From: Candidatus Improbicoccus pseudotrichonymphae
Lineage (GTDB): Bacteria; Bacillota; Clostridia; Oscillospirales; Acutalibacteraceae
Assembly (NCBI GenBank): GCA_036322855.1
Contig: AP027924.1
Location: forward strand, 61,361 to 125,360
DNA: 64,000 bases
Direction of reading: 5' to 3'
Position numbers and translations under genes: made by a program. The notes beneath the pieces were generated by a model. The model did not search any database and was not told the DNA's origin. It was given only the letters and a program-made list of their open reading frames with translations. Each line of letters opens with the position of its first letter. Positions within the stretch are counted from its first letter, which is position 1. Positions 14,084 through 36,031 of the stretch are shown piece by piece.

Positions 14084-14111
14084 GACAAAAATAGCAACCG
14101 AATTGGTTGCT
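14084..14111 (-). terminator. putative intrinsic terminator downstream of the tail-fibre gene
   Basis: AGCAACC-n4-GGTTGCT hairpin followed on the minus strand by ATTTTTG. Confidence 0.4.
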
Positions 14112-14142
14112 TGTTCTGTTTTAATCTGTTGATTAGTAACTT

Positions 14143-16137: not shown

Positions 16138-16292
16138 AATTTCACTCCAGATTTTTAAATTTCAAATCAAAAAATAAAATTAATTAAAGATAAAAATAAA
16201 AAACTCCATCTAAACCGATAGAGCTAATTGTTATTTACTTTTTAAATTTTGTTTTATTTATCTTAATTCATTAATTCGTTTAATTTATTAAT

Positions 16293-18716: not shown

Positions 18717-18916
18717 AATATGTTAATTGATAACAAAAATGACTAATAACAAAAATTTTAATAATTTTAATAATAATAAACAAAATAAACGTCTAGATTG
18801 ACGCTTTATTTTTTTGCCTTTTCTTACCTATCTTAATCATCTTATCTTTTATTACTTTCTTATTTTTTATTTTTTATTACTTATATCTTATTTTTCTTAC
18901 TTTTGGAGCTGAAAAT

Positions 18917-19507
18917 ATGTCCACCTCATCAGATATGTCTACTACCAATCAATATATAAAATATACAATAACAATCACACAAAATAGTCAAAATGTCTCA
19001 AACAACACTTCTAATGTTTATGTTTACGTAAGGGTAAGGCGCACAAATACTGGATATACGACTTATGGTACAGGAACTATTTATTGCAAAATAGATGGAA
19101 CTACCTATAGCGCCAGCATAACTTCAGATCAAAAAATAACAGAAAATGGAATAATTTTATTTTCAAAAACTTTGGATATTACCCACAATTTTGACGGTTC
19201 TAAAACTCTAACTTGTAGCTCATGGTTTAGCATGAGCACTGTTAGCTCAAGCGAACAAAGTTATTCTCAAACACTCACAACAATTCCAAGAGCAAGCTCA
19301 TTTTCTGGTGGAAATGGTAATATTGGAAGCACGACTAGTATTGCAATTAGTCGAGCTACGACAAATTTCACACACATGTTATATTATGATATAGGTGATG
19401 GTTGGGAAATATTTGCCAGAAACGTAGGAACTAGCTATACTTGGACGATTCCTACTTCTTTTTATGCAAAGATACCAAATTCAAATAGCGGAACTGGAAC
19501 TTTATGG
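18917..19507 (+). pseudogene. 3'-truncated second copy of the DUF859-like tail fibre gene
   Basis: First ~196 codons are near-identical to 14143..16137. The frame breaks exactly where tRNA-Glu begins (..GTGTLWW* versus ..GTGTLWCETYNG). Confidence 0.65.
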
Positions 19508-19582
19508 TGGTGACTCGGACGGGATTCGAACCCGTGTTACCGCCGTGAAAGGGCAGTGTCTTAACCACTTGACCACCGAGCC
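19508..19582 (-). tRNA. tRNA-Glu (anticodon UUC) with encoded CCA
   Basis: Hand-folded from the reverse complement: acceptor GGCTCGG/CCGAGTC, anticodon loop CTTTCAC, T-loop TTCGAAT. Confidence 0.8.
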
Positions 19583-19988: not shown

Positions 19989-20937
19989 TCAATAAATATG
20001 AATATCAATCTCGGATCTATATTTTTCTAATGCTAATGCCAATTCTTCAGATATCAAAAGATAATCGCCTCTTTCAGTTACACAAACTCTAATATTAGTT
20101 ACACGAAAATCAGGACCAGCTTCGTGCAATAGATCATGTGCATGACATCTAACATAGTTAGAATAGTCTTTTCCGGTGGATTCGCTTGGTTGTTTTTCTC
20201 CTAGTTCATAAACAAACTTAGAGTATTTATTTTCCAGTTCTCCCATTATTTTTTCTCTTATTATATCACTAGGAGGAGAAAAAAATAAAGCTCTTGCTAT
20301 GCCCATGGATTCTGCAACGGATGATTCAAATATATATAATCTGCCACCACGTCTACTAGATTTACCTAAATTTTCATAATACCCTCCTTTAGGATCTTTC
20401 TTATCTACTAATCTGCCTATATTACAAGTTTGGCGAGTTTTTCCACACATTTCGATTTGTCTAATTTCTGGTTTCTCTTTTGGTTCTTCTTCTTCTTCTT
20501 CTTCTTTTGGTTCTTCTTTTGGTTCTTCTTTTTTTATTTCTTCTTCTTCTTCTTCTTCTTTTATTTCTTCTTCTTCTTTTTTTGGTTTTGCCTTTCTAGG
20601 ACTAATTGCATCATATATAACTAAAATACCAACGCCTAAGACACTAATGCCAGCAATAGTTTTAGCTAAACTTGAAAGCTCTTCAGATTTATCAACCGTA
20701 TCGTCCTTTTTACTTTCATCTCCATTTTCATTTTTGTCGTTTTCTTTAACATTACTTTTATCTTCCGATACTTTAACGTTATCTTCGCATTTCGTTGTTT
20801 CAACAGTTTTCTTGCTGCTATCTACAAGTCGATCATCAGACCCAACAGCCCCAACAAAAGACTGACAACACATAATAACAGCTAAAATAGAAGATATTAT
20901 TTTATTGTTTTTATTAATCTTCTTGCTATTTTTATTT

Positions 20938-20966
<29 letters not shown>
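19989..20966 (-). CDS. 5'-module family member A: signal peptide, acidic spacer, TM helix, E/K-rich tract, C-terminal domain type 1
   Basis: N-terminus MKKESNGIGENKNSKKINKNNKIISSILAVIMCCQSFVGA is shared by all family members. C-terminal domain is related to member D (TCNIGRLV, YSKFVY, AGPDFR, SEEL). Confidence 0.75.
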
Positions 20967-21060
<94 letters not shown>

Positions 21061-21112
21061 AACCTTTCCTCCTGATATTAAAATATAAATCAGCGAAAAC
21101 ACTGATAAATTA

Positions 21113-21140
21113 ATTATAGCATTTTGAATTTTGCTGTCAA
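21113..21140 (-). promoter_or_regulatory. sigma-70-type promoter of member A (TTGACA-16-TGCTATAAT)
   Basis: Reverse complement reads TTGACAGCAAAATTCAAAATGCTATAAT; the same motif is upstream of B, D, E and F. Confidence 0.6.
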
Positions 21141-21150
21141 ACAGAATTAT

Positions 21151-21267
21151 GCGAAGCATTTTAATGCGACACTATTTAGCGGTGACTTTGTCTCCGCAAG
21201 AGACAATCTAGAGCCGCATGTTTCTTTGGGTTTCACCCGTTTCTTTGCGTCAAAGAAATGGGTGAAA
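21151..21267 (+). other. conserved three-hairpin element, copy 1
   Basis: GCATT/AATGC; GCGGT..TTGTCTC-loop-GAGACAA..GCCGC; TTTCACCCGTTTCTTTG-cgt-CAAAGAAATGGGTGAAA. Confidence 0.6.
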
Positions 21268-21354
21268 AAGAAATAAACTTTAATATGTTTAATTTAAATA
21301 CTTAGAGATAAAAATTTTATAAATATTATTTTTAAAATTATTTTTATTATCTTA

Positions 21355-21382
21355 TTGACAGCAAAATTCAAAATGCTATAAT
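21355..21382 (+). promoter_or_regulatory. sigma-70-type promoter of member B (TTGACA-16-TGCTATAAT)
   Basis: TTGACA at 21355-21360, extended -10 TGCTATAAT ending at 21382. Confidence 0.6.
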
Positions 21383-21434
21383 TAATTTATCAGTATTTTT
21401 GCTGATTCATATTTTAAAATCAGGAGGTAAAATT

Positions 21435-22283
21435 ATGAAAAATAGCTTCATAAAATCTCTCATGAATTCTCTCAATTCGAGAGAGAGAGAGAGAGAGAGG
21501 TCTCTCAGGGGTTTCTTTATGAAAAAAGAAAGCAATGGAATAGGTGAAAATAAAAATAGCAAGAAGATTAGTAAAAATAATAAGATAATTTCTTCTATTT
21601 TAGCTGTTGTTATGTGTTGTCAGTCTTTGGTTGGGGCTGTCGATCTTCCTTTGACTGTGGATGATAGTAAATTTGTTGAGCCTGTGGGCAAAGATTTGGA
21701 AAATGATAATGATAATTTAGAAAGTAGTAGCGAAGACGAAAATAATTATAAAGACGGCGAAGGCGAAAATAGCGAAGCAGAAAATAACGAAAACAAAAAT
21801 ATAAACAATAGTAAGTCATTTTCAATTTTAGCAAAGGTCTGTATTGGTGTTGGTTCTGGCGTCGGTTTTATTGTTGCTGCTGTCGTCGCAGACTACCTTA
21901 TTGGTAATAGATATACTGTCGAAATTTCTAACTCAAGATATCCGATTTTTGAAATTGATTTTGAAAACCTTGGTTTTTATTCAAAAAAAGATCCATTTGA
22001 TAAAAAATATTATTTGACCATGAATTTCAAAAATTCAGGAAAAATAAAATTTGTGAGAACAATATCGGATTACTATTCTCGCCCAATTAGGTTTGTAACA
22101 AATTCAAATGTTGGAAATGTCAGATCTGATGAAATCGATAAATTTAGTGATTATTCTAAATTTATTATTGATATTTTTAAATGTAAAGAACATGATGGTT
22201 CTAACGCCTTAAAAAAATATTTTAGTAAAAAAATGTTGAAATTAATGCAAAAGGTATCGAGTCATATATTCATTATTTGCTGA
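21435..22283 (+). CDS. 5'-module family member B (leader fused in frame); C-terminal domain type 2
   Basis: MKNSFIKSLMNSLNSRERERERSLRGFFMKKESNGIGENKNSKKISKNNKIISSILAVVMCCQSLVGA..; acidic/N-rich spacer, TM helix (VCIGVGSGVGFIVAAVVA). Confidence 0.7.
   Translation: MKNSFIKSLMNSLNSRERERERSLRGFFMKKESNGIGENKNSKKISKNNKIISSILAVVMCCQSLVGAVDLPLTVDDSKFVEPVGKDLENDNDNLESSSEDENNYKDGEGENSEAENNENKNINNSKSFSILAKVCIGVGSGVGFIVAAVVADYLIGNRYTVEISNSRYPIFEIDFENLGFYSKKDPFDKKYYLTMNFKNSGKIKFVRTISDYYSRPIRFVTNSNVGNVRSDEIDKFSDYSKFIIDIFKCKEHDGSNALKKYFSKKMLKLMQKVSSHIFIIC
21479..21498 (+). repeat. dinucleotide SSR (GA)10 inside leader B
   Basis: Counted directly. Confidence 0.95.
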
Positions 22284-22362
22284 GTAAAGTTAAAAATAAA
22301 AACCGAAATTTCCGTCTAATTGATGGACTTTTTTTTAAGCTAGAAATCGAAGGTGTTAAAGA

Positions 22363-23619
22363 TTGCGAAAGCTTGGTCATGGAAATTATAGCTCCTCTGG
22401 AATTGGCAGACAAAATAAAAGGATACTAGATTGTTTGCGAATATGTGAAGAAAAATGTACTGAAATCTTTGGAAACATTGAAAAAATATGTGAAGAAAAT
22501 TCAAGAAAAGTATTAAAGGCATTCATAGAAAATAAAGTAAGTGAAAATCACTTCAGAGTTTTTACAGGTTATGGGTATGGTAATATCGGAAAAGAAGTTT
22601 TGAATAAATTAGTAAGCCAGATAATGTGCACAGAAAGTGCCCTGGTGGATGAAAATTTTATCAGTGCTACTCACGCCCTGAACGTAAGTTTGTTTGCTAT
22701 AACAAAGCCCGGAGATACGATTTTAAGTGTAACTGGCGCTCCGTATGATACGTTGAAAAAAACTATATACGGTAAAAATACCGGTTCATTACGTGATTTT
22801 GGAATAAAATTTAAAATTTCAAATTTTAAAGATGAAAATTTTTTGGATTTATTAAATAATGATATAAAAGTCATATACATTCAACGTTCTTGCGGATATT
22901 CTTTGAGAGAGAGTTTGAAAATCAGAAATATTGAATCCATAATAAAGAAAATAAAAAAAAGATCTGATGCTTTGATTTTGGTAGATAATTGCTATGGCGA
23001 GTTTGTTCAAGAAAAAGAACCTACAGAAGTTGGAGCTGATTTGATAGTTGGTTCTCTTATAAAAAACCCCGGAGCAGGAATCGCTCCATCCGGAGCTTAT
23101 TTAGCAGGAAAAAGAAACTTAATAGAACTTTGTCTTAATCGTTTTGCTTTCCCGGGAGCAAAGTTGGGAATTGGACCGTCGAAATATAATCGTGAATTAT
23201 TGATGGGTTTTTATTATGCCCCCATGGTCGTAAAAGAAGCATTAAAAACAGCTGTATTTGCGGCCTTATTTTTTGAAACTTTGGGTTTTGAAGTTTCACC
23301 GAAATATAATGAAGAACGCTCTGACATAATACAGGCTATTAATTTTAAAAATAGAGAAAATTTGCTTACTTTTTGTCAGGAAATGCAATCCACGCTCGCC
23401 ATAGACTCTTTTGTAACACCGACACCTTGGAAGATGCCGGGGTACCAAAACGAGATCATAATGTCGTCCGGAGGATTTATATCAGGTTCCACGATAGAAC
23501 TTTCTTGTGACGCTCCGATGCAAAAGCCGTATAGTGTTTTTTTACAAGGCGGGACTAACTTCTACATGTCAAAATTTTCAATACTAAACGCCGCGATGAG
23601 ATTAGTAAATAATCAATAG
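22363..23619 (+). CDS. ynbB: PLP-dependent YnbB / aluminium-resistance family protein (Cys/Met-metabolism lyase-like)
   Basis: KVLKAFIENKVSENHF..TGYGYGNIGKEVL N-terminal block and overall length are typical of this family. TTG start is uncertain. Confidence 0.65.
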   Translation: MRKLGHGNYSSSGIGRQNKRILDCLRICEEKCTEIFGNIEKICEENSRKVLKAFIENKVSENHFRVFTGYGYGNIGKEVLNKLVSQIMCTESALVDENFISATHALNVSLFAITKPGDTILSVTGAPYDTLKKTIYGKNTGSLRDFGIKFKISNFKDENFLDLLNNDIKVIYIQRSCGYSLRESLKIRNIESIIKKIKKRSDALILVDNCYGEFVQEKEPTEVGADLIVGSLIKNPGAGIAPSGAYLAGKRNLIELCLNRFAFPGAKLGIGPSKYNRELLMGFYYAPMVVKEALKTAVFAALFFETLGFEVSPKYNEERSDIIQAINFKNRENLLTFCQEMQSTLAIDSFVTPTPWKMPGYQNEIIMSSGGFISGSTIELSCDAPMQKPYSVFLQGGTNFYMSKFSILNAAMRLVNNQ

Positions 23620-24175
23620 TCTCTTTTAAGAGAGTAGAATTAATTTTTCAAAAATTAAAGATTTTCCATTTGTATGGGAAACTTAGCATAAATTTTTATT
23701 TTTATTTTCATTTTTTGTATAATATTTACATAAATTTTATTACAAGTTAATATTTTTTTAAAGTGCGTACTATGTTGATGTTACCAGAAAAAACGCTAAC
23801 TTTTTGCTTTTTGCCTTTACACGTGTATCCAGCATAGGGCTGTAACCAGGTAATGAAAGTCCGCTATTACAAAAATCCTATAGGTTTCGTAGTAACGATA
23901 AATTATGAGAAAGTCGGCAGGAAGCCATATTATCTTCTTTGCGTAAATAAAGAAGAACAAAATTTTAGGAAACGGCATAAACAGAAAGGAAAAAGGTGAA
24001 AATTGGAAATCGAGAATCAACGGTAGTTGACATGTATTTCGACGGGCAATGGTGCAAGTGCTTACTCCAATGTAATAGGGTGAGGACAATTTCGGGAAAC
24101 AATTTAGCTTTTGATCAGAAAGAAATCAACACCAAGCGTTGAGACAATGCCGACAAAATGTCAATATTTATTTCT

Positions 24176-24257
24176 GCGCCGCCTTGTTTCCTGCAAGGAA
24201 ACATCGTAAGGCGCGATTTCTTTGGGTGTACCCGTTTCTTATAAAAGAAATGGGTAC
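24176..24257 (+). other. conserved hairpin element, copy 2 (divergent; hairpins 2 and 3 with compensatory changes)
   Basis: GCGCC..TGTTTCC-tgca-GGAAACA..GGCGC and GTACCCGTTTCTT-ataa-AAGAAATGGGTAC. Confidence 0.55.
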
Positions 24258-24347
24258 GGAAGAAATAAATTTTATAAAATATTAATTTAAATACTTAGAG
24301 ATAAAAATTTATAAATATATCTTTTCAAAATTTTTCGTGTTATTTGT

Positions 24348-24376
24348 TTGACAAAAAATACTCAAGATATTATAAC
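24348..24376 (+). promoter_or_regulatory. sigma-70-type promoter of member C (TTGACA-17-TATAAC)
   Basis: Position and flanks are homologous to the promoters of the other family members. Confidence 0.5.
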
Positions 24377-24428
24377 TATTTTATCAACATTTATGTTGAT
24401 TCATATTTTAAAATCAGGAGGAAAGGTT

Positions 24429-24528
<100 letters not shown>

Positions 24529-24551
<23 letters not shown>

Positions 24552-25476
24552 TAATGAAAATAATAAGAAGATTAATAAAAACAATAAAATAATATCTTCT
24601 ATTTTAGCTGTTATTATGTGTTGTCAGCCACTCGTCGGGGCTAGTTCTAATACAGATGTCAAAACCTTTAAGGCAGAAAATAACGACAGAGTTGTCGTAG
24701 CAAGCAATGATAAAGTAGTGACCTCTGTAATGAAAAAAAAAGATAATAATAACAGCGGCAACAACAACAACAACAATGATGATGATGATGATGATGATGA
24801 AAAAAACGAAAATACCGAAAAAATTCCCGTGGGTAATATGCTTTCGTTTTTGGGCGGTAGTGCTGTCACGATTTTGACCGCTTTTATTTTGAATAAATTG
24901 AATATCATCAGTTTTGCTCCATCTCAGAATTGGGATTGGGCGAATAGTGATTTTTTTACTTGGGGTAATGTTAAGGAAATCTTGAGAGCACTTGAGCCAA
25001 ATGTGGAGTATTTTGCTATTGTTGCTAATAAAGAAGATGAAGAACCAAATATTGGTTTCTGTAATTATATTGAAATTTTTTGTAATTCATTGGTATTCCA
25101 GATTTTTTCACGTGGAACCAAGAAGTTATTGGTGTTTCTTGAAGAAATTTCACATGATGGTAAAATTGATCCAGGCAGTGACAAAGGAAAAATTAGGTTA
25201 TTTTTTGCTATGAGAGCTCTTTTAATTGCGTGCTATAATATTTCGTCGGACGTGATAAACAAAGAATTTGCAACTAATTTTTTTAGTAAAATACTGCCCA
25301 ATAATAATGAACTGTTTATTCTTTTTAGTTCCGATCAGGATATATCTGATTTATGTCGTCAATTTTACAACATAGAAAAACCAGAAGAAATCACTTTAGT
25401 AATGAAAATAGATGCGATTACTTGGAAATTCAGAGAAAAATATTTTGAAAAAAAAATAGTCTTTGATGAAACTTAG
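24529..25476 (+). CDS. 5'-module family member C; C-terminal domain type 3
   Basis: MKKEKISNNENNKKINKNNKIISSILAVIMCCQPLVGA, N6/D7 homopolymer runs, TM helix (FLGGSAVTILTAFIL), unique ~200-aa C-terminal domain. Confidence 0.7.
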
Positions 25477-25510
25477 TTTAATATTTTAAAAAATGAGGAG
25501 TAGATTTATT

Positions 25511-26548
25511 ATGAGTAAAAATTGTTTAGTGAAGAAAATTTTAGCAATCTTAGTTTTTGGTTTTGTACCTTTTAATGTTTGTGTGTCGGCGTCGAATAGG
25601 TTAGAGGGTCAAAAGACTCAAAAGGTTGCTACTAATCCATCTTTTAAAAAAACTGCAGGAAATACCACAAGTAAGATTAGCCCCATGCCAAGTTTTAAAT
25701 CAGTACTACAGTCATCACCAGAACCACAGTCACCACTACTAACACAAGAACAAATACAACAAATTGAAGCTTTGTTGAAAGAGGTTGGTTTGGAAGAAGA
25801 AGCATATGAAATGCGAGGAATAAAAAATGCAGGTGATTTCATACGGATTATTGAAAAATTAGTTAGATTAATTGGCGAACAAAAAGGAACTTTAATTGAT
25901 CTTGCGGGAACCAACGTTAAATTAAATTCAGAATTAGGTGAACTTGAGGCAACCAACCGTCGTTTAGATTCAGAATTATCGGATTTAAAAAAAAAATTTA
26001 ACGAAACGAGTGATCAAAATACTCTACATACCAAAATTCAGGAATTAAATGAAAAAAATGGTCAACTGATGGCACAACTGCAAAATTCAGAAGCAGAAGT
26101 GTTGGAATTAAAAAGAAAAAATGAACAACTGAATAATGAAAATAGTCAACTGAAAACACAGTTAGATGAACTGCAAAATTCAAATGAGCAACTACTAAAC
26201 AAAATAGATAACCAAACTCAGGAATTAAATGAAAAAAATGATCAACTGAAAACACAGTTAGATGAACTGCAAAGTTCAGAAAAAAAGGTGTTGGTTTTGA
26301 ATGATAAAGTAGGTCTTTTGGAATTGAAATATAAATCGGAATTAAAAGGTTGGTTACAACAAGAGTTACAAAAACTCGAGGAAAGTTTTAGTAGTATGCA
26401 ATTAGTACAAAAAGAAGGCTTTTCACAAGATGTAAAAGAATCGAATGTAAACCGTATGAGATTCCTCTTTTTACAACAATTGCAAGTGCAACGTAAGTTT
26501 CTTTTGAAATGTTATGATTTGAGAAAAAGTATATATTTTGAAGGCTGA
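25511..26548 (+). CDS. secreted coiled-coil protein (companion gene of member C)
   Basis: Signal peptide MSKNCLVKKILAILVFGFVPFNVCVSA, then heptad-like Q/E/N/L repeats (NEKNDQLKTQLDELQ..). Paralogous to 33441..34287. Confidence 0.6.
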   Translation: MSKNCLVKKILAILVFGFVPFNVCVSASNRLEGQKTQKVATNPSFKKTAGNTTSKISPMPSFKSVLQSSPEPQSPLLTQEQIQQIEALLKEVGLEEEAYEMRGIKNAGDFIRIIEKLVRLIGEQKGTLIDLAGTNVKLNSELGELEATNRRLDSELSDLKKKFNETSDQNTLHTKIQELNEKNGQLMAQLQNSEAEVLELKRKNEQLNNENSQLKTQLDELQNSNEQLLNKIDNQTQELNEKNDQLKTQLDELQSSEKKVLVLNDKVGLLELKYKSELKGWLQQELQKLEESFSSMQLVQKEGFSQDVKESNVNRMRFLFLQQLQVQRKFLLKCYDLRKSIYFEG

Positions 26549-26691
26549 TCTGCCATTCTTAGACAATAGTAAGATTTTGATTCTGTAAAGGCGGCTTCTA
26601 AATATCTCTATTTGGGGTTGGGGCGTGTTTTAATTAATTAATTAATATACACTCCCCAATATTTTTTAATTTTTAATCTAGAAATCGCAAA

Positions 26692-28680
26692 TTATTCAGG
26701 TATTTTGTCTTTGTCGTTATTTTTTTCTTTATTTTTGTTATCTTTTTTTTCATTATTTTTTGAATTCTTGTCTAAGTTTTTGTCTTCATCTAATTTCGGT
26801 TCCGGCAACGATGGTTTTTCTCCAACGCCCGATTCGTTACTTACAATTACGTATGCACTACTGTAAATATCCGGCAATCTCACACTATACGCTTTAATTT
26901 CATATACTCCTTCCGTGGCAGGTGCGGTGTAAAGTCCGTTGTTATCTATATTTCCTGTGTTTTTTAATCCAAGTTCCCAACGTATGCGTTTATCATTTAT
27001 TCCATCGATGCTTGCTTCGAATCTTATTTGTTCAAACGGTTTTAAACCTACTGTGTTTGGTTTTATAGTAACTGTAGCATTCTTTTCTAAAATTAGATCT
27101 TTATATGGGTCTTGTTCTTTAACAGGTTTAAACGCCCACCATCTTATATCTATGTGTGTATCGATTGTTTTTTCAAGCAGGCGTACTCCAAGTTTAATAG
27201 TTCCTTTAGAAACATCCACCGCGGCGGCAATTTGGATTGAAGGCACCGATGATTTCAATTCTTCTTCGGAAAAAATACTTTTGTCTCCGAAAATTAAAAG
27301 TTCTTTTTCATATTCCTGAATATTAGCACGATTTACGGCACAAGCTAACACGCCAATTTCTCCCAAACCCAATCCATGAACAAATTCGTACGAGTAATAT
27401 ATTTTGCCGGGTTTGGCGTTAAAACCTAAATTTATTCTTTCGATGCCGGACAAAATATTGTTTTTTTCATTGTTGTTTATGTTATTTTTTTTGTCATTAT
27501 TATTATCAGCATCCGCGTAGGTATTATTTTTTTCGTTGCTATCTTTGCCTTCGATTGAAATAGCCTTCGAATCGATTTTTTTTTCGGCTCTGATTTTTTT
27601 AACATTTGTTCCTTGAAAATCTTGCAAAAGTTTCAATAATTCATTGCTGTATAAAAACTGTTCGAATGGATGTTTTTTAAATTCTTCTATAAAATATGAA
27701 GTTTTATTGTTTATTATATTAAACTTTGCAAGATATATATTTTTGTTTGCCGCCAATTCTAAAATTTCATCAAAATGCCTGGAATAATAGTCTCTCACTA
27801 TTAAATTTCTTATATCTTCTGTGACAACTTGTATCGGTATGCTTATATTTTTTTCTATATTGTATTTTTCTTTTCCTATGTTCAAAACAAATGTATCTTT
27901 CGGAATAATCATTTCTGTTAAAACAGATTCCTGGGCATCACAATACAAAAAATAGTCTTTTTGAATACTTTTATAACTTGTTATTTCAGATTCATCGTAT
28001 TTTATTATCAAATTTCTGTTACTGGAAGTCTCATTAACTTTAAACAAGTTGCCGTACAATTCAAAATTGTAATTTATTGCTTCTTCTATTTTTTCTTTTT
28101 CAAAAAATAAACGTATTTGAGTAATTTTATTGGAATTAATATATTTTTCAGTTTCCATTGTGATTTTTACATTATTTTTATTATAAATTTCGGTTCTTTT
28201 TTTCACAAGAAAATCAAGCGTTAGCTCACTTTCTTCTGATATATCCGAAGTTAAATATAGTTCGTAATCTTCACTTATTCTGTTGAATTGTTTATTTTCC
28301 CCCATTTGTTTGCCGGCGCTGGCTAATGAAAACGTACTTTCGTTTAAATTTTCTTTGTATCTTATACATAAATATACCGTGTGGTTGTTTTTGTTTTCTT
28401 CAAAACCTTTTATCACATTTAATTTTCTTACACACGGTTCCGAAACAATTATTTCCCTCCCTAGGTGATCAATTGCCATACCGGTTTCAAGAGAAAATGT
28501 ATGATTATCCATAAGAATTACATCAAGTCCCGAAACAATTCCTACTCCACCCAACATACGACTGCAAAGATAACGTTTTGAATTAAAATATTTTTGTTCA
28601 TTTATAAAATCCTTTGCCGTCATAAGTTTACCGAAAAAATAATTGTTACGTTGATTTGTGTAATAATGGCCATTATTCAT
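26692..28680 (-). CDS. baseplate-associated protein of contractile injection systems / phage tails, with a C-terminal Ig-like (Big_2-type) domain
   Basis: Translationally adjacent to the gpI-like gene. N-terminal block FFGKLMTAKDFINEQKYF..RMLGGVGIVSGLDV..GMAIDHLGREI resembles proteins I recall next to gpI in eCIS loci. C-terminus has NGLYTAPATEGVYEIKAYS. Confidence 0.5.
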   Translation of the reverse strand: MNNGHYYTNQRNNYFFGKLMTAKDFINEQKYFNSKRYLCSRMLGGVGIVSGLDVILMDNHTFSLETGMAIDHLGREIIVSEPCVRKLNVIKGFEENKNNHTVYLCIRYKENLNESTFSLASAGKQMGENKQFNRISEDYELYLTSDISEESELTLDFLVKKRTEIYNKNNVKITMETEKYINSNKITQIRLFFEKEKIEEAINYNFELYGNLFKVNETSSNRNLIIKYDESEITSYKSIQKDYFLYCDAQESVLTEMIIPKDTFVLNIGKEKYNIEKNISIPIQVVTEDIRNLIVRDYYSRHFDEILELAANKNIYLAKFNIINNKTSYFIEEFKKHPFEQFLYSNELLKLLQDFQGTNVKKIRAEKKIDSKAISIEGKDSNEKNNTYADADNNNDKKNNINNNEKNNILSGIERINLGFNAKPGKIYYSYEFVHGLGLGEIGVLACAVNRANIQEYEKELLIFGDKSIFSEEELKSSVPSIQIAAAVDVSKGTIKLGVRLLEKTIDTHIDIRWWAFKPVKEQDPYKDLILEKNATVTIKPNTVGLKPFEQIRFEASIDGINDKRIRWELGLKNTGNIDNNGLYTAPATEGVYEIKAYSVRLPDIYSSAYVIVSNESGVGEKPSLPEPKLDEDKNLDKNSKNNEKKDNKNKEKNNDKDKIPE

Positions 28681-28703
28681 CTAATTTTCCTCCGCAATTA
28701 ATT

Positions 28704-29873
28704 TTAATCTATCATAGTTATGCCTTCTTCATTGTTTATTTTCTTGCTAATAAGGCTATATTTTTCTCTTGTTAAAAAAGAATTAATTCCAATATAACAA
28801 TGATGACCCAGAAAAATTCCATTTTGCAATATAACTAAATTACAAACTGTTCCCGCCGGGGACATATCTCTTATTATGTGTAAAAGATTAGCATAATCCT
28901 CACTTGTTTTTATGTTATTTTCGTTTAAAAATACATTAAATACAAAAGAATTATCTCCGAAAAGCGAATCTATAATTTTTTTTTCTCTTACGTAAAACTC
29001 ATTTTCAGTAACTTTAAACTGTTCAATAACTATTGGTTCTACACCAATGAATTTTTCAACCATAAGTTTTATTGATTTAATGGTTCCTTTTGTTTTAAAT
29101 ATTTCAATAGCATTGGAAACCATATCTCTTAATTTATCTTCTCGCCAAACATCTACATCTCTAATTCCCAACCATCGAGATATCCATTTTAAAAAATCAT
29201 AACTATTATTTAATGGTTCAAAATTCGCGGGTATAAAATCTATTTTGTCGTCCAAATCGTCGTACATACTTTGGAAAATAGCAATAAACCTGGAAAAAAA
29301 AGAATCTTCTCCACTTCTTTGATATATTTCCGGCAAATACTCAATGAAGTTGTTATGTGGAAATTCTATTTTCATACTTCTTATTTTTATAATGCTCGAA
29401 CTATCATAACTTATGGCTTCTATACAAACCCATAGATATCTTCCTTTAAGTTTAAACAATGGCATGTCAACAGGATTTTCAAAAGAAACATGACTTAATT
29501 TTGAAAATATACTTAATTTACTGCCTACATCTACGTTTTTGTTAAGCAAGAAATTATTCAGATTTGTAAAATTTATATCACCATCCAAATTTAACCAAAA
29601 ATCGTGTTCATCACTTGCTAAAATACTAACTTTAATTTTTGAATTTCTTGAAACTTCTGAGTCAAATCTGATCCTGTGCCAAACTGTTTCTTTTTCAAAA
29701 CTATCCAGGCTTATTGAAATAAAAGCAGAATTTTTATCTGAATTAAAATCAAAAACAAGACTGTCGTCTTCAAAATTTACCCCGCTGAGTACATTTTTGT
29801 AGCACCAATCTTCTCTATTATTAAACATAAAAAATTTTGTACCGCGAGGCATTTCAAATCCTCCATTTACCAA
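28704..29873 (-). CDS. phage P2 gpI-like tail protein I / Afp12-like baseplate wedge protein
   Basis: C-terminal half has YLPEIYQ..FFSRFIAIFQSMYDDLDDKIDFIPANFEP..FLKWISRWLGI..W.EDKLRDMVSNAIEIFKTKGT, the characteristic gpI pattern. Confidence 0.7.
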   Translation of the reverse strand: MVNGGFEMPRGTKFFMFNNREDWCYKNVLSGVNFEDDSLVFDFNSDKNSAFISISLDSFEKETVWHRIRFDSEVSRNSKIKVSILASDEHDFWLNLDGDINFTNLNNFLLNKNVDVGSKLSIFSKLSHVSFENPVDMPLFKLKGRYLWVCIEAISYDSSSIIKIRSMKIEFPHNNFIEYLPEIYQRSGEDSFFSRFIAIFQSMYDDLDDKIDFIPANFEPLNNSYDFLKWISRWLGIRDVDVWREDKLRDMVSNAIEIFKTKGTIKSIKLMVEKFIGVEPIVIEQFKVTENEFYVREKKIIDSLFGDNSFVFNVFLNENNIKTSEDYANLLHIIRDMSPAGTVCNLVILQNGIFLGHHCYIGINSFLTREKYSLISKKINNEEGITMID

Positions 29874-30133
29874 ATTATTTTTGCATTTTAATGCACTAAT
29901 TATTCAGTATTGGAAATTATTACAAAAAACAATGCGGATTATTGTTTTTGATTATTCTCACAGTTCCTTTATATTTTGACAATAGCCCGATTTATATATG
30001 ATTAACATGCAAGTTTTTTCTAAAAATACGAGAAAATATTCCGTATTTTTTTTCTAAATAATACAAATCACGAATACAAACGATTCGTATGTCGTAAATC
30101 CATATCTTACAATAAATAATCTTATATCAACAT

Positions 30134-30974
30134 TTATAACTCTTCCATCGTGTATCCATTATTTGTTAATACTTTTACCAATTCTTCAGATACTAAAAAA
30201 AGCCAGGATATGACAATATTAACTAAACGAAAACCAGGGCCAGCTTTGCACAATAGCTCATATGCATGAAATTTAGTAATGTTTTCTACAGCTTTTTCCC
30301 CTGTTATCATTCTATAAATAAACTTAGAGTATTCACTTTTCAGTTGTTTCATTACTTTTTTTTTTACACCATCAATTTTTACACTATTATTTTCATCAGG
30401 ATGATGAAAAGATACAAATATTGATTTTTGTTCTTCGCCGCCGCCCATTAATACTCTAATGGATTTTTTAAATTTAATTAGACCAAATTTACCTAAATTT
30501 TCAAAATATTTTCCGCCAAAACCATCATCTACTTTATTTACTAATCTGCCTATATTACAAGTTTTATAATACTTTTCACCTATTTTGATTTTTCCAATAG
30601 TAACTCTACAACTAATTGCATAACGTACAACACAAACTAAAGCACCAACACCGGGAATACTACAAATTGTACCAAAACCAGCTTTGGCTAAACCCGAAAG
30701 CTCATTAAATTTATCAATAAGACTTTTATTTTTGATTTTATTTTTATTTTCGCCTTCACCTTCGCCTTTGTCGTTTTCTTTAACATCATTTTCATTTTCT
30801 GGTATTTCAACACCATCTTCATCTTTGTATTTCATTATTCCAACAGTTTTCTTGTTATCTACAAGTTGACCACCAGACCCAACAGCCCCAACAAGTGGCT
30901 GACAACACATAATAATAGCTAAGATAGAAGAGATTATCTTATTATTTTTACTAATCTTCTTGCTATTTTTATTT

Positions 30975-31003
<29 letters not shown>
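30134..31003 (-). CDS. 5'-module family member D; C-terminal domain type 1 (related to A)
   Basis: MRKESNGIGENKNSKKISKNNKIISSILAIIMCCQPLVGA; TM helix; TCNIGRLV, YSKFIY, AGPGFR, SEEL as in member A. Confidence 0.7.
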
Positions 31004-31106
<103 letters not shown>

Positions 31107-31138
31107 AATTTTACCTCCAAAAGTGTCGACAAATATAG

Positions 31139-31167
31139 ATTATAGCGTTTTTGAATTTTGCTGTCAA
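31139..31167 (-). promoter_or_regulatory. sigma-70-type promoter of member D
   Basis: Reverse complement reads TTGACAGCAAAATTCAAAAACGCTATAAT. Confidence 0.55.
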
Positions 31168-31177
31168 ACAGAATTAT

Positions 31178-31414
31178 GCGAAGCATTTTAAATGCGACAC
31201 TATTTAGCGGCGACTTTGTCTCCGCAGGAGACAACTTAGAGCCGCATGTTTCTTTGGGTTTCACCCGTTTCTTCTATTAGATTCCTCCCTAAACTTCGTT
31301 TTTTATAAAGATTAAAAATCAAAAAAATCCTCACATACACAAAGTATGTTCCGGTGTTTTTTGATTTATTTTTAAAAATACTCGTTTGGAAGAAATCTAA
31401 AGAAATGGGTGAAA
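31178..31414 (+). other. conserved three-hairpin element, copy 3, with hairpin 3 split by a ~125-nt palindromic insert
   Basis: Hairpins 1 and 2 are as in copies 1 and 4. TTTCACCCGTTTCTT at 31259-31273 and AAAGAAATGGGTGAAA at 31399-31414. Confidence 0.6.
31274..31398. repeat. MITE-like imperfect palindrome inserted in (or extending) hairpin 3
   Basis: Ends AGATTCCTCCCTAAAC.. / ..GTTTGGAAGAAATCT and inner AAAAATCAAAAAA / TTTTTTGATTTTT are inverted repeats. Confidence 0.45.
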
Positions 31415-31499
31415 GAGAAATAAATTTTAATATATTTAATTTAAATACTTAGAGATAAAATTTTATAAATATTATTTTAAAATTATTTTTATTATCTTA

Positions 31500-31527
31500 T
31501 TGACAACAAAATTCGAAATGCTATAAT
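31500..31527 (+). promoter_or_regulatory. sigma-70-type promoter of member E (TTGACA-16-TGCTATAAT)
   Basis: TTGACAACAAAATTCGAAATGCTATAAT. Confidence 0.6.
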
Positions 31528-31558
31528 TCACTTTATCAGCACTTTTGGAGGTAAAATT

Positions 31559-31645
31559 GTGAAAAGTAAATTTATCAAATCTCTCATGAATTCTCTCAAT
31601 TCGAGAGAGAGAGAGAGAGAGGTCTCTCGGGAGATCTCTCTATGA
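31559..31645 (+). CDS. leader mini-ORF of member E (GTG start; stop overlaps main start as ATGA)
   Basis: VKSKFIKSLMNSLNSREREREVSREISL*; TGA at 31643-31645 overlaps ATG at 31642-31644. Confidence 0.5.
   Translation: MKSKFIKSLMNSLNSREREREVSREISL
31603..31620 (+). repeat. dinucleotide SSR (GA)9 inside leader E
   Basis: Counted directly. Confidence 0.95.
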
Positions 31646-33240
31646 AAAAAGAAAACAGTATAGTAAATAAAAATAATAAGAAGATTAATAAAAACAATAA
31701 AATAATATCTTCTATTTTAGCTATTGCTATGTGTTGTCAGTCTTTTGTCGGGGCCAATCCAAATTCGGATAATAGGGAATTTGTTTCGGATAAGGTCATT
31801 GATAATAATCCAGCTGCAGATGGGTCTGAAAAAGAAGAAGATAAAGAAGATAAAGAAGATAAAGAAGATAAAGAAGATAAAGAAGATAAAGAAGATAAAG
31901 AAGATAAAGAAGATAAAGAAGAAGTAAAAGACATCAAAAGCAAAAAAAATAATAATTCAGGTTTAATAAGAAATAGTTTAGATATTATTTTATTTCTTGC
32001 CACTGCGGGTAGTTTGTGTCTCTATGGAACTAAAAATAAGTCCGAAATGGAAAAATCAAATCAAAAGCCAGTATCAAATTATGTAAAAGAATTAGTCAAA
32101 AAACCTCTTACCGGAAATTACACGTGTGATTTCATCGCTCTTGTAGAATCATTTATTGAAAAACGAGAACAATTAACAGCGACGACTGAAAGATTAAATG
32201 CAGATAATAAGAAATTGAAAGAAAATTTAGATAGATCGAAAGAAGAAGAAAGAAATTTGAAGAAACAAGTAGATCAATTAGACCAAGAATCACAAAAATT
32301 AATGCAACAAGCAAATAAGTTACAAGAAAGTAAATCAAGGAAAGAAGTAATTCAATTATTAAAAGAAGAAGAAAATTTGAAGCCACAAGTAGATGAATTA
32401 AAACAAAAAAAACAAATGGAAGAAAATTTGACGGAACAAGTAAATCAATTAAAACAAGAAGAAGGAAATTTGACGGAACAAGTAAATCAATTAAAACAAG
32501 AAATGAGTCAACCAATACAAGAAAAAGAAAATTTGACGAAAGAAGTAAATCAATTAAAACAAGCAAAAAAAAATTTGGAGGAAAAAGTAAATCAATTAAA
32601 AAAAACAAAACAAAAAGAAGAAAATTTGACGGAAGAAGTAGTAAGTAAATTAAAACTAGAAAAAGAAAATTTGACGGAACAAGTAAATCAATTAAAACAA
32701 AAAATAAGTCAACCAATACAAGAAAAAGAAAATTTGACGAAAGAAGTAAATCAATTAACACAAGAAAAAGAAAATTTGACGAAAGAAGTAAATCAATTAA
32801 CACAAGAAAAAGAAAATTTGACGGAACAAGTAAATCAATTAAAACAAAAAAAAGAAGATTTAATTAATAGATCAACTGAAGATAAAGAAGCAGAGTTGAA
32901 AGATTACAATAGTTCGAAGAAATATTGTCTAGAATTGCCAAACGGCATTTGGGATAAATTTTTTAATTCGACACTAGCACTAAATTCAAATACTGCACCA
33001 CCAAATGAAAATAATACTCTTCTTGAATTGACGAAAACAATGGTGTATGGCATGCAAAAAGTGCTACCTTTGATTGAGAAAAGAGAAAATGAATTAAATT
33101 CTCTTATACAAAATGATGAAGTGGGTAAATTTATTGATAAAGAACACGAACGTTGTTTCATCGGTTTAAATACACAGTTCGAAAGAAGAATAAGTCTTTT
33201 GAGAAATTTTTATGACACAGACCCCACGAATTACAGTTAA
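31642..33240 (+). CDS. 5'-module family member E; long coiled-coil body
   Basis: MKKENSIVNKNNKKINKNNKIISSILAIAMCCQSFVGA, (EDK)9, TM helix (LDIILFLATAGSLCLYG), LTGNYTCDF motif, reiterated ENLTEQVNQLKQ units. Confidence 0.7.
   Translation: MKKENSIVNKNNKKINKNNKIISSILAIAMCCQSFVGANPNSDNREFVSDKVIDNNPAADGSEKEEDKEDKEDKEDKEDKEDKEDKEDKEDKEEVKDIKSKKNNNSGLIRNSLDIILFLATAGSLCLYGTKNKSEMEKSNQKPVSNYVKELVKKPLTGNYTCDFIALVESFIEKREQLTATTERLNADNKKLKENLDRSKEEERNLKKQVDQLDQESQKLMQQANKLQESKSRKEVIQLLKEEENLKPQVDELKQKKQMEENLTEQVNQLKQEEGNLTEQVNQLKQEMSQPIQEKENLTKEVNQLKQAKKNLEEKVNQLKKTKQKEENLTEEVVSKLKLEKENLTEQVNQLKQKISQPIQEKENLTKEVNQLTQEKENLTKEVNQLTQEKENLTEQVNQLKQKKEDLINRSTEDKEAELKDYNSSKKYCLELPNGIWDKFFNSTLALNSNTAPPNENNTLLELTKTMVYGMQKVLPLIEKRENELNSLIQNDEVGKFIDKEHERCFIGLNTQFERRISLLRNFYDTDPTNYS
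31837..31917 (+). repeat. in-frame 9-bp tandem repeat (GAAGATAAA)9 encoding (EDK)9
   Basis: Counted directly. Confidence 0.95.
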
Positions 33241-33440
33241 ACAGAAGAAGAACTTTTTTGAGCAATTTTTATGGCGCAAACCCCACGGATTGAAGGTTTC
33301 AAAAAATTCCAATTCTTAGAATTTGATTTTTTAGTAAAAAGTAAATATGATCATGTGACACTTCAAAAAGAGAAGAAATTTTCGTGAAATACAGGAATTT
33401 GGTTCAGTATTTTAAAAATTAAGGATGTGTAGGTTTATTT

Positions 33441-34287
33441 ATGAGTAAAAGTCGTTTTATGAAAAAATTTTTAGCAATCTTGGTCTTTGGTTTTTGTAAT
33501 CTCAATATTTGTGCGGTCGGCAGCAATGGGGGGAAAATCAGGGCAAATGATTGGTATTAACAGGCAGAAAACAGCAACAAATTTTTATTCCAGTCCTTTA
33601 GAAAAATCATCAGCCCAAGAGAGTCGAGAATATATAAAAATGAAGTCACGTATAGAAAAATTAACCAAAAGATCTCTTACCGGAAATTCCATATGTGATT
33701 TTGTTGTTCTTGGAGAATTATTTCTTGAAACAAAAGAACAATTAGAAGAAACGCAATTAGAAGAAACGCAAAATGAAAATCAAACGATGGAAAATAAAAT
33801 TGAAGAATTAAATGCAAATATTAGAGAATTGCAAATAGAATTAGAAAAAACGCAAAATACAAATCAAGCGATGGAAAATAAAATTGCAGAATTAAATGCA
33901 AATATTAGGGAATTGCAAATAAAATTAGATCGATTAACACAAGGAATTGAACCATCACAAAAAGAAGAAGAAGAATCGAAGAAGTCTCTTGAAAAAAAAG
34001 AGTATATAGATTACAATTCGTCGAGGAAGTTACTTGCAGAAAATGAGAATAGAAAAATTTTGGAGGATTTTCTTTCTCCGATGTCACCACGGAGGGTTAT
34101 TCTAGATTCATCGCCAAGTAATGTTAATCTTTTTTCTACATTGAGACAAATAGTAAGTGGAATGTTACTTGCGGAAATTAAGATTAATGCACTAAGTAAA
34201 GAAAATTTAAATTTATGTGCGAAAAATTCATGTTTACGTAATGAAATAAATGAATTAAAGCAAAAAGAAAGAAAGTTGGAAGATTAA
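33441..34287 (+). pseudogene. secreted coiled-coil protein (companion gene of member E), frameshifted at a G6 tract
   Basis: Signal peptide MSKSRFMKKFLAILVFGFCNLNICAVGSNGG is in one frame. The body (KSGQMIGINRQK..LTGNSICDF..coiled coil) is in the next frame, joined at GGGGGG 33528-33533. Confidence 0.65.
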
Positions 34288-34484
34288 ATTCATTGGAGGC
34301 GTTTCTTAAAGAAGATAATTTCTTAAAGAAGATAATAATAAAAAAATTTTGATGAATTTTTTTAGTATGACACTACAAAATAGGAATTTAAATCTACCGG
34401 CAGGTGATACTAGTTTTTTTGATGTATTGAAAAAAATGATAAGTGGCATGTCATATGCGGAAGGTTTGATTAATGAACTAATTA

Positions 34485-34575
34485 GAGCCTGTTCACACGA
34501 AACAAAGAATCGAAAATAAATGCAAATAAAGAAAAGAAATGTACATTAAATCGGGCTTATCATAGCGTGTAAAAA
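34485..34575 (-). mobile_element. solo terminal fragment of the second IS5-family element
   Basis: GAGCCTGTTCACACGAAA.. plus ~75 nt aligning with the 3' end of 46038..46784. Confidence 0.5.
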
Positions 34576-34672
34576 GATGCATTAAAAAATCACTTTCTTC
34601 TTTAAAGAAAGTGATTTAAGAATGGGTTTTATAAAAACATAAACTTATAAATAATTTTAAACAAGAAGAGAT

Positions 34673-34788
34673 GCGAAGCATTTTAATGCGACACTATTTA
34701 GCGGCGACTTTGTCTCCGCAGGAGAGACAACTTAGAGCCGCATGTTTCTTTGGGTTTCACCCTCTTTGCGCCAAAGAAATGGGTGAAA
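34673..34788 (+). other. conserved three-hairpin element, copy 4
   Basis: GCATT/AATGC; GCGGC..TTGTCTCC-gca-GGAGA(GA)CAA..GCCGC; TTTCACCC-TCTTTG-cgc-CAAAGA-aat-GGGTGAAA. Confidence 0.6.
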
Positions 34789-34878
34789 GAGAAATAAATT
34801 TTATAAAATATTAATTTAAAATACTTAGAGATAAAAATTTTATAAATATATCTTTTTAAAATTTTTCGTGTTATTTGT

Positions 34879-34906
34879 TTGACAGCAAAATTCAAAATGC
34901 TATAAT
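34879..34906 (+). promoter_or_regulatory. sigma-70-type promoter of member F (TTGACA-16-TGCTATAAT)
   Basis: TTGACAGCAAAATTCAAAATGCTATAAT. Confidence 0.6.
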
Positions 34907-34957
34907 TATCTTATCAGTATTTTTGCTGATTCATATTTTAAAATCAGGAGGAAGGTT

Positions 34958-36031
34958 ATGAAAAATAACTTCATCAAATCTCTCATGAATTCTTTCAATT
35001 TGAGAGAGAGAGAGAGAGAGGTCTCTCAGGGAGATCTCTCTATGAAAAAAGAAAAAATAAGTAATAATGAAAATAATAAAAAGATTAGTAAAAATAATAA
35101 GATAATATCTTCTATTTTAGCTGTTGCTATGTGTTGTCAGTCTTTTGTCGGGGCCAATCCAAATTCGGATAATAGGGAATTTGTTTCGGATGAGGGCATT
35201 GATAATAATCAAACTGCAGATGGGTCTGAAGAAGACGATGAAGTAAAAGACATCAAAAGCAAAAAAAATAATAGTTCGAGTTTAATAAGAAATAGTTTAG
35301 ATGTTCTTTTAGTTGCTGCTATGGGCAGTTGGTGGTTTTATGGAACTAAAAATAAAGATAAAGATTTAAAATCTAAAAATGAGGAAATCGGAAGATTAGA
35401 GAAAGAATTTGAAAAAAAAGATAAAGAACTTGAAGGAAAAAATAGAGAACTTGGTGAGGAAATCGAAAAATTAAAGAAAGAACTTGAAAAAATCGAAAGA
35501 TTAGAGGAAGAATCATCTGAAGACATTTTGGAAAAAGAATATTTTAAATTAGACTTTCTTGAATATAAGGGTAAAAGAATTTTTACTTTTGCTTTAGGAA
35601 AGAAGATGGTGATTCGCAAAGATGAAGAAGATAAAGGCGAGACACTTTTTTATAGTTTGAGCTCAAATTTTGGTGGTATTTCAACTGTTTTCGTATGCGC
35701 CAGAAGGTATTTTTATAGTGATACAAATTATGAAATTTTCGATGGCGAAATTAGAAAAGCAGAAAACAAAATCAAAGGAGAATTAGAAAATATGGAACCG
35801 TATTCTCGATTTGTTTATAATGTCGCAATAGGCCGAGAGGATATTTCTGAATTAACAACCGAAGAAAAATTAGCAGAAAAATTGTGTGGATTATTGAGTG
35901 AATGCGAATCCAAATTTCGTTTGACAGGTTTTTATTTAACTTTAAGAAATTCAGGAAAAAAAATCGGAGATATCCTTGTGCCGCAAGAATTGGCGGAATC
36001 AGTTATTTCTGCCAATTCAGAACAGATATAA
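34958..36031 (+). CDS. 5'-module family member F (leader fused in frame); C-terminal domain type 4 (shared with G)
   Basis: MKNNFIKSLMNSFNLREREREVSQGDLSMKKEKISNNENNKKISKNNKIISSILAVAMCCQSFVGA..; TM helix; E/K coiled coil. C-terminus has FTFALGKK..PYSRFVY..FRLTGFYL as in G. Confidence 0.7.
   Translation: MKNNFIKSLMNSFNLREREREVSQGDLSMKKEKISNNENNKKISKNNKIISSILAVAMCCQSFVGANPNSDNREFVSDEGIDNNQTADGSEEDDEVKDIKSKKNNSSSLIRNSLDVLLVAAMGSWWFYGTKNKDKDLKSKNEEIGRLEKEFEKKDKELEGKNRELGEEIEKLKKELEKIERLEEESSEDILEKEYFKLDFLEYKGKRIFTFALGKKMVIRKDEEDKGETLFYSLSSNFGGISTVFVCARRYFYSDTNYEIFDGEIRKAENKIKGELENMEPYSRFVYNVAIGREDISELTTEEKLAEKLCGLLSECESKFRLTGFYLTLRNSGKKIGDILVPQELAESVISANSEQI
35002..35019 (+). repeat. dinucleotide SSR (GA)9 inside leader F
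   Basis: Counted directly. Confidence 0.95.

Follow-up and report, generated by a model that had tools for sequence, protein, structure and literature searches.

Two baseplate genes of Candidatus Improbicoccus pseudotrichonymphae as probable parts of a contractile injection system dispersed over its chromosome

Two adjacent genes of Candidatus Improbicoccus pseudotrichonymphae CfP3-15, here called cis12 and cis13, resemble baseplate genes of contractile phage tails and injection systems, and they raise the question of whether they stand alone or belong to a machine encoded elsewhere. They lie in a stretch of 64,000 nucleotides (the window; genome bases 61361-125360) of a genome consisting of one contig of 1,007,634 bp. 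We conclude that the pair very probably encodes the outer part of the baseplate in a phage-tail-like contractile injection system (CIS), resembling the extracellular type (eCIS), that rearrangement has dispersed over seven loci. The producer, a member of Clostridia, lives as an obligate intracellular endosymbiont in the termite-gut protist Pseudotrichonympha grassii and is a putative energy parasite; its genome is described as the smallest complete one in Clostridia, with 94 pseudogenes and reduction still ongoing (PMC10579323). The same genome paper proposes Sec secretion of the endosymbionts' eukaryote-like proteins. Its main text does not mention contractile, sheath, injection, phage tail or secretion system, and its supplement does not mention contractile, sheath or baseplate (PMC10579323).

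The gene pair and its products

The pair and its surroundings contain the following features, in window coordinates.

28704-29852, minus strand: cis12, gpI-like putative baseplate wedge gene, 382 aa from the ATG at 29852
28681-28703, minus strand: intergenic spacer between cis12 and cis13, 23 nt, read from the sequence and containing the GGAGG ribosome-binding site of cis13
26692-28680, minus strand: cis13-like putative baseplate fibre or appendage gene, 662 aa, with an N-terminal CIS13_fam match
29954-29982, minus strand: candidate promoter (TTGTCA, 17 nt, TG-n-GAGAAT) from a consensus scan, about 100 nt 5' of the cis12 ATG

Both long frames lie on the minus strand, as an earlier note on this DNA had described, but the start that it gave for the gpI-like gene, TTG 29873, had to be moved. 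The mechanical open reading frame (ORF) extends to that TTG (28704-29873, minus strand, 389 aa), and the likely start is the ATG at 29852, which has a GGAGGA ribosome-binding site ahead of it and agrees with the 382-aa product in the protein collection. The cis13 ATG at 28680 is preceded by GGAGG. Since both genes have ribosome-binding sites and only 23 nt separate them, the pair is real, intact and operon-like. The site at 29954-29982 is a candidate only, because the promoter scan of the cis12 region did not find more sites than the shuffled expectation. Footprinting 5' of gpI in three genomes revealed nothing conserved.

The reading of the cis12 product as a gpI/Afp12-type wedge protein was borne out. 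Its motifs, EYLPEIYQ..FFSRFI..DDLDDKIDFIP..FLKWISRWLG..KGT, were found letter for letter in the translation. Cis12 scored above the curated cut-offs of Pfam Tail_P2_I (PF09684; 31.2 bits against a gathering threshold (GA) of 20.6) and of TIGR02242, 'phage tail protein domain' (80.9 bits, cut-off 51.85), and it matched NCBIfam CIS12_fam (NF053768) in part, at 2e-29 and 102.8 bits. The best stretch of that match covered profile positions 426-570 of 715, to which the genome search added 643-698. In PHROGs, Cis12 fell into 'tail protein' families.

An AlphaFold model of Cis12 (predicted local distance difference test, pLDDT, 76) has an N-terminal beta-sandwich in residues 1-165 and a helical gpI/TIGR02242 wedge domain in residues ~169-342. 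The first-ranked PDB structure in Foldseek was the Streptomyces coelicolor CIS baseplate (9gtp_A; 8.5e-7, target-normalised template-modelling (TM) score 0.53, 19% identity), followed by the cyanophage A-1(L) wedge protein gp32 (8kea_c), the phi812 baseplate, the diffocin triplex region and the P1 baseplate. The top five (9gtp_A, 8kea_c, 9euk_D, 8v3w_4 and 9vzk_k) were baseplate chains throughout; 9euk_D had a target-normalised TM-score of 0.38, the other four scored 0.43-0.53. A profile search of PDB sequences gave the same top two entries as Foldseek. The N-terminal beta-sandwich matched CBM, lectin and Cry-domain folds. From these profile and fold matches, Cis12 is predicted to be a baseplate wedge protein of the P2 gpI/Cis12 type.

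The second protein had been likened to those encoded beside gpI in eCIS-type loci. It occupies the Afp13/Cis13 position, and its N-terminal block does match the corresponding family. The translation contains TAKDFINEQKYF..GGVGIVSGL..GMAIDHLGREI, and residues 10-154 aligned with profile positions 5-145 of 392 of NCBIfam CIS13_fam (NF053767; 4.9e-24, 85.3 bits). Cis13 and CIS13_fam have the N-terminal domain in common and differ in the remainder. Searches of Pfam and PHROGs gave no match for Cis13. Its parts, in protein residues, are as follows.

Residues 10-154: conserved N-terminal domain
Residues 155-356: beta-sandwich domains
Residues 357-406: variable disordered linker
Residues 407-520: beta-sandwich
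Residues 536-613: Big_2-like Ig domain
Residues 616-662: K/N/D/E-rich tail, disordered

The model of Cis13 (pLDDT 68) is a chain of beta-sandwiches, disordered at 357-406 and 616-662. Alignment, model and profile all agreed with the earlier description of an Ig-like domain and a K/N/D-rich tail at the C-terminus. The Cis13 profile met many multi-Big_2 proteins at positions 515-597, and one homologue has PF02368. Among 29 aligned homologues (45-54% identity), the tail was confined to the two Improbicoccus species, and the majority fraction was 0.80 in the N-terminal domain, 0.23 in the linker and 0.75-0.78 in the distal domains. The Cis13-like family comprises 619 representative clusters at E<=1e-30, more than 100 of them full-length. 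Searches of PDB sequences with the single sequence and with the profile gave nothing useful. The PDB fold matches were generic Ig/beta-sandwich ones (invasin and complement C3 MG domains), and the viral library BFVD returned phage tail fibre and receptor-binding proteins, weakly and with low TM-scores. Neither a transmembrane helix (maximum 19-residue Kyte-Doolittle mean 1.58) nor a signal peptide was found in Cis13.

Seven loci on one chromosome

CIS genes were sought across the whole genome by family profiles and tblastn. The matches fell into seven loci, given here in genome coordinates.

Locus 1, 70724-71179 (window 9364-9819), minus strand: PAAR-like DUF4280 spike-tip gene, 151 aa
Locus 2, 88052-91233 (mechanical ORF; gpI ATG 91212), minus strand: cis12 and cis13
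Locus 3, 144265-145212, plus strand: Pvc16_N terminator gene (Pfam 5.3e-27)
Locus 4, 689458-690519, plus strand: Phage_GPD hub gene
Locus 5, 752305-758684, plus strand: genes for the gpV OB-fold spike, gp25 and two J-like/TIGR02243 proteins
Locus 6, 766604-773371, minus strand: genes for a 302-aa protein, sheath, tube, a 123-aa protein, a second tube-like protein, a 150-aa protein and a 525-aa protein
Locus 7, 874927-876924, minus strand: AAA+ ATPase gene (Pfam AAA; 26% identity with the ATPase of L013, an intact eCIS cluster, over 632 residues)

The eCIS gene set, comprising sheath, tube, gp25, J-like, gpI-like, gpV with PAAR-like, AAA+ ATPase and Pvc16_N, is complete. These loci are scattered from 70 kb to 877 kb of the 1.0-Mb chromosome, and there is no single contiguous cluster. 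The sheath, two tubes, tape-measure-position protein, GPD hub, gpV, gp25, two J-like proteins, PAAR-like DUF4280 protein, AAA+ ATPase and Pvc16_N are encoded by single intact copies, and CIS12_fam and the sheath family each had a single match in the genome. Whole-genome searches thus confirmed one of the two possibilities that had been raised for the pair, that the rest of the machine lies elsewhere as a split locus. The other, survival of the two genes alone with co-option, found no support given the single-copy CIS set at six further loci, and the description of the pair as orphan holds for the window only. No match to eCIS_core/DUF4157 (PF13699) was found in the CfP3-15 genome.

Even the window is not free of other CIS genes, contrary to what had been noted. 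The DUF4280 gene at 9364-9819 (minus strand) matched Pfam DUF4280 at 7.4e-17 and, in tblastn, the DUF4280 gene of L013. It is Pro/Ala-rich, lies 41 nt downstream of trmD and has copies, 51-58% identical, in five genomes of the same genus. Therefore, the window contains three CIS genes, not two.

At locus 5, the genes of the J-like paralogues (1014 and 721 aa; 753478-758684) follow one another, the stop codon of the first overlapping the start codon of the second. Every relative has kept the two together, and the wedge may accordingly be a J1-J2-gpI heterotrimer. The housekeeping genes ddl, murC and spoIIP separate this locus from locus 6, where the sheath, tube, tube adaptor and tape-measure-position protein are encoded within 766.6-772.3 kb. 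The 525-aa protein of locus 6 is K/N-rich and follows the homologue of the 150-aa protein, the position of a 717-aa protein in the related contig L011; no similarity was detectable between these two. The Pvc16_N terminator has a strongly acidic, D/E-rich C-terminal tail of ~130 residues, and Cis13 has a charged tail too; low-complexity tails of this kind may be general in this genome.

The set could also be read as an ordinary myovirus prophage or R-type tailocin whose remnants were displaced by recombination. Myovirus tails have gpI, J, gp25, sheath and tube as well, and the genome does contain two identical HK97 capsid genes, a terminase gene and a decayed element with DUF859 fibre genes. 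However, there is a single sheath gene, and the capsid (195.9 and 638.8 kb) and terminase (714.3 kb) genes are unlinked to any CIS locus, each being more than 20 kb from every one. The CIS set is vertically inherited throughout the clade (see below) and includes two CIS hallmarks, an AAA+ ATPase (Afp15) and a DUF4255/Pvc16_N terminator (Afp16); Pvc16_N is not known to occur in phages and tailocins. The AAA+ ATPase is absent from phages and tailocins as well (PMC12210884). Displaced prophage remnants, the outcome that the earlier note had named as fatal to its own proposal, are therefore highly improbable.

The prophage-type genes themselves are as follows. HK97-type capsid genes at 195904-196725 (L018) and 638779-639600 (L019) agree exactly in score and in the length of their frames, a sign that a prophage may have been duplicated, and a Terminase_6N gene lies at 714344-714946 (L020). 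At 10884-19513 of the window is a decayed integrative element, unrelated to the CIS, in which a large serine recombinase (Resolvase/Recombinase/DUF4368) is still intact; it also contains DUF859 and Gp10_C fibre genes of siphovirus type.

The genes next to the pair come from a family whose N-terminus is a conserved signal peptide and which has 99 copies in the 1.0-Mb genome. The near-identical module, MKKE..NKKI(S/N)KNNKIISSILA..MCCQ.LVGA, occurs at 19989-36031 of the window and genome-wide. Copies often form divergent pairs, and their bodies are unrelated and frequently coiled-coil; one member, of 346 aa, lies immediately upstream of gpV (genome 751125-752165). The family was considered as a source of the breakpoints of dispersal and rejected, since 6 of 14 fragment ends lay less than 2.5 kb from a copy when 4.7 were expected (P=0.32). 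Proximity of CIS fragment ends to the family is thus no more than chance, and the embedding of the pair among these variable genes is uninformative. Elsewhere in the window, at 42001-64000, G+C climbs from ~30% to 35-38% and GC skew becomes steadily positive.

Gene order in relatives

Was the machine ever encoded in one place? The closest homologues of the pair were found on metagenome contigs (L011, L012, L016 and L017) in which GPD, gpV, gp25, J1, J2, gpI and Cis13-like genes are contiguous. The products in those contigs are ~1000 aa (J1), ~720 aa (J2), ~390-400 aa (gpI) and ~596-602 aa (Cis13-like). A genome of a further small-genome genus (G015) has sheath through cis13 on one strand of one contig, and the more distant cluster L013 also has the ATPase, DUF4280 gene and Pvc16_N on its contig. 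Proteins of the intact clusters (L011, L012, L016, L017 and G015) were 40-42% identical to those of the window for gpI and 49-52% for Cis13; orthologues were only ~50% identical, which leaves synonymous sites saturated. J-J-gpI-Cis13 is thus contiguous in small-genome relatives. The placement of gpI directly 3' of J2, seen in L011, L016, L017 and G015, does not hold in CfP3-15, where gpI (90-91 kb) is far from J2 (756.5-758.7 kb). About 4 kb downstream of the intact cluster on L017, a gut metagenome contig, is an ATP/ADP translocase (TLC) gene (15496-17007), which ties the contiguous form to the same energy-parasite clade.

Thirty relatives were surveyed with a concatenated CIS query of 2758 aa. 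This search scores 10 candidates per genome, which makes absences in individual metagenome-assembled genomes (MAGs) unreliable. The CIS set was detected in all 9 other genomes of the same genus (0.9-1.2 Mb) and in G015, with 78-84% identity in the C-terminal half of the sheath and 59-71% in Cis16. None of the 20 larger-genome relatives from the family or order had the set by this query, which gave only generic AAA matches there.

The two other termite-protist endosymbionts show dispersal of their own. In NkDv07, gpI and cis13 are followed by three unrelated genes and then J2; sheath, ATPase, gp25, GPD and PAAR are located elsewhere, so that the genes are dispersed yet intact. A 1075-aa gene 5' of gpI in NkDv07 was considered as J1 and rejected because its product is not a J1 protein. 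In the complete genome of Candidatus Paraimprobicoccus trichonymphae RsTa-C01, CIS genes occur at at least eight loci, all with open frames. Its gpI (702.5 kb) and cis13 (1058.4 kb) are 356 kb apart and both intact; cis13 is solitary after efp, and the gene-free gap of 1.1 kb upstream of it contains no gpI remnant. Since the relatives have contiguous clusters and the three endosymbionts are differently dispersed, the dispersal is secondary and lineage-specific. It accompanies retention of every CIS gene, and it broke up an ancestral order that is reconstructed as running from the ATPase, 302-aa protein (x302) and sheath genes through to J2, cis12 and cis13.

These comparisons also bear on whether the pair could be an autonomous co-opted module, such as an adhesin, independent of any contractile machine. 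In favour of this, the pair has ribosome-binding sites of its own and perhaps a promoter, and the two genes have travelled together in CfP3-15, NkDv07 and contig L010. In RsTa-C01, though, both remained intact when separated by 356 kb, and the rest of the CIS accompanies the pair in every genome that has it. Further, Cis12 has a core wedge fold for which an independent role is not known. We consider such a module very improbable.

The proposed machine and its meaning

How would the two proteins serve in a dispersed CIS? In contractile tails, the baseplate wedge contains a 'triplex', formed by T4 gp6/gp7, by TssF/TssG of the type VI secretion system (T6SS) or by P2 gpJ/gpI. Cis12, which is gpI-, T4 gp7- and TssG-like, would assemble with gp25 and both J-like paralogues into each of six wedges, and the wedges would surround a GPD-gpV-PAAR hub. 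Cis13 may dock on the wedge by its conserved N-terminal domain with its string of Ig-like domains pointing outward. In the CIS of Anabaena, a thylakoid-anchored CIS (tCIS), the N-terminal domains of Cis13 bind the baseplate (PMC8894136). Contact of the Cis13 appendage with a membrane or surface would then lead to opening of the baseplate, contraction of the sheath and passage of the spike through the membrane. The host membrane is the likely target because the bacterium lives in protist cytoplasm, and by analogy with Amoebophilus and Cardinium. We infer this assembly order, stoichiometry, trigger and target; observed are the homologies, the complete single-copy set, the open frames, the ancestral J1-J2-cis12-cis13 neighbourhood and the conservation within the clade.

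Several observations weigh against a dispersed, working CIS built in this way. For sheath-tube particles and their expression, the evidence in this system is at gene level only. Three RNA-labelled runs examined on window 26000-30500 gave no RNA signal, and a termite-gut DNA run gave only identical DNA pieces at low depth. No upstream motif common to the dispersed loci, which could explain their co-regulation, was found. Both proteins stay far below the equivalog cut-offs of their families, Cis12 with 103 against 860 bits (CIS12_fam) and Cis13 with 85 against 370 bits (CIS13_fam). Neither sequence nor structure searches linked Cis13 to a solved CIS fibre. The distal domains of Cis13 are nearly as conserved as its putative docking domain, which is unusual for a target-recognising fibre. 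The 525-aa protein is a candidate tape measure by its gene position, and the proposed Cis12-J and Cis13-wedge contacts are drawn by analogy.

Some of these points would fit a decaying relic, in which frames are still open but the genes, once dispersed, have lost their co-expression and no longer yield an assembled machine. The missing common motif and RNA signal, together with the 94 pseudogenes and ongoing reduction (PMC10579323), agree with such a state. On the other hand, the whole set of ~16 genes has stayed intact in same-genus MAGs and in three endosymbiont genomes that were rearranged independently, and the C-terminal half of the sheath is 75-84% identical across these genomes. By our own estimate, a frame of 662 codons would survive by chance with a probability of ~e^-54 (at ~30% G+C, which gives ~8% stop codons in random sequence). 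A relic is thus improbable.

Another possible explanation is that the dispersed CIS works while cell-anchored or cytoplasmic, as do T6SS-iv of Amoebophilus, the Anabaena tCIS and the Streptomyces CIS, with Cis13 as an anchor to the producer's own envelope instead of a fibre that recognises the target once the particle has been released. The Anabaena Cis13 not only binds the baseplate but anchors the CIS to the membrane (PMC8894136), and homologues of the fibre-position protein have been proposed as anchors of T6SS-iv (PMC12210884). The best PDB match of Cis12 is the baseplate of the cytoplasmic Streptomyces CIS, and no lysis cassette was noticed at any locus, with no systematic search made for one. 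The conservation of the distal Cis13 domains (0.75-0.78 in 29 homologues from many different metagenomes) fits a constant ligand, and because of it we regard a cell-anchored Cis13 as possible, if on balance unlikely. Cis13 lacks a transmembrane helix (19-residue Kyte-Doolittle maximum 1.58) and a signal peptide, and the tape-measure-position protein, Pvc16_N and ATPase make up an eCIS gene set. In addition, the producer is a Firmicute, with matches to spoIIP and other sporulation genes in its genome. Given the thick wall of Firmicutes, outward firing from within the cell is difficult to envisage.

The proposed eCIS-resembling machine has relatives among known systems. A 2025 preprint reports a complete eCIS in MAG-71, a symbiont in Acutalibacteraceae associated with rumen ciliates, and its sheath tree places this symbiont in subtype IIb alongside termite-flagellate parasites (10.1101/2025.07.29.667580). 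MAG-71 and CfP3-15 are alike in belonging to the same small-genome clade and in having an ATP/ADP translocase. The sections consulted do not state the dispersal over seven to eight loci in termite-protist endosymbionts and do not characterise the Cis12/Cis13 pair (10.1101/2025.07.29.667580). The AFP-like system of Cardinium hertigii cEper1 and the T6SS-iv of Amoebophilus asiaticus are likewise CIS kept in obligately intracellular symbionts with reduced genomes, and that of Cardinium is split over five genome regions (PMC3486910). These are Bacteroidota with subtype Ib, whereas CfP3-15 is a Firmicute with subtype IIb, seven loci and a different fibre-position protein. In the preprint and in PMC3486910, we found neither dispersal over seven (CfP3-15) or at least eight (RsTa-C01) loci with full retention, nor a reconstruction of the ancestral order, nor a description of the Cis13-like family.

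The antifeeding prophage (AFP) of Serratia, with Afp12/Afp13, and the Photorhabdus virulence cassette (PVC), with Pvc12/Pvc13, share the order J, gpI, fibre of the ancestral cluster and the gpI-type wedge domain. CfP3-15 differs from both in having two distinct J-like paralogues. Its Cis13 has no match to Afp13/Pvc13; it consists of Ig-like beta-sandwiches and a Big_2-like domain and is conserved rather than hypervariable. The Anabaena tCIS resembles it in having a fibre-position protein (PMC8894136), but that protein ends in a triple helix and transmembrane anchor, while Cis13 of CfP3-15 ends Ig-like without a transmembrane helix, and the PDB sequence search with Cis13 matched no tCIS chain. 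The S. coelicolor CIS baseplate (9gtp) is the best match for the wedge domain of Cis12 by sequence and fold; its matched chain, of ~180-190 residues, lacks the N-terminal beta-sandwich of Cis12.

Dispersed systems of this kind are missed, or mis-called orphan, by cluster-based CIS finders and window-based readers. The Cis13-like fibre-position family, with hundreds of representative clusters, has no Pfam model, and CIS surveys built on Afp13/Pvc13 homology leave it uncounted.

We propose tentatively, and with somewhat less than even confidence, that these bacteria, the only Firmicutes known to be obligately intracellular, interact with their hosts chiefly by means of the dispersed, conserved CIS, used for entry, vacuole escape or effector delivery into the protist, and that the conserved, un-annotated Ig-domain Cis13 family binds a ligand common to very different eukaryotic hosts. 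If true, Firmicutes would have arrived by convergence at a counterpart of the Amoebophilus/Cardinium system, and it would follow that a machine of ~16 genes can stay functional without operon structure. The CIS is a concrete candidate for the means by which a Firmicute enters or manipulates a eukaryotic cell. A complete CIS has been kept through extreme genome reduction and several rounds of rearrangement, which suggests that the parasitic way of life depends on it.

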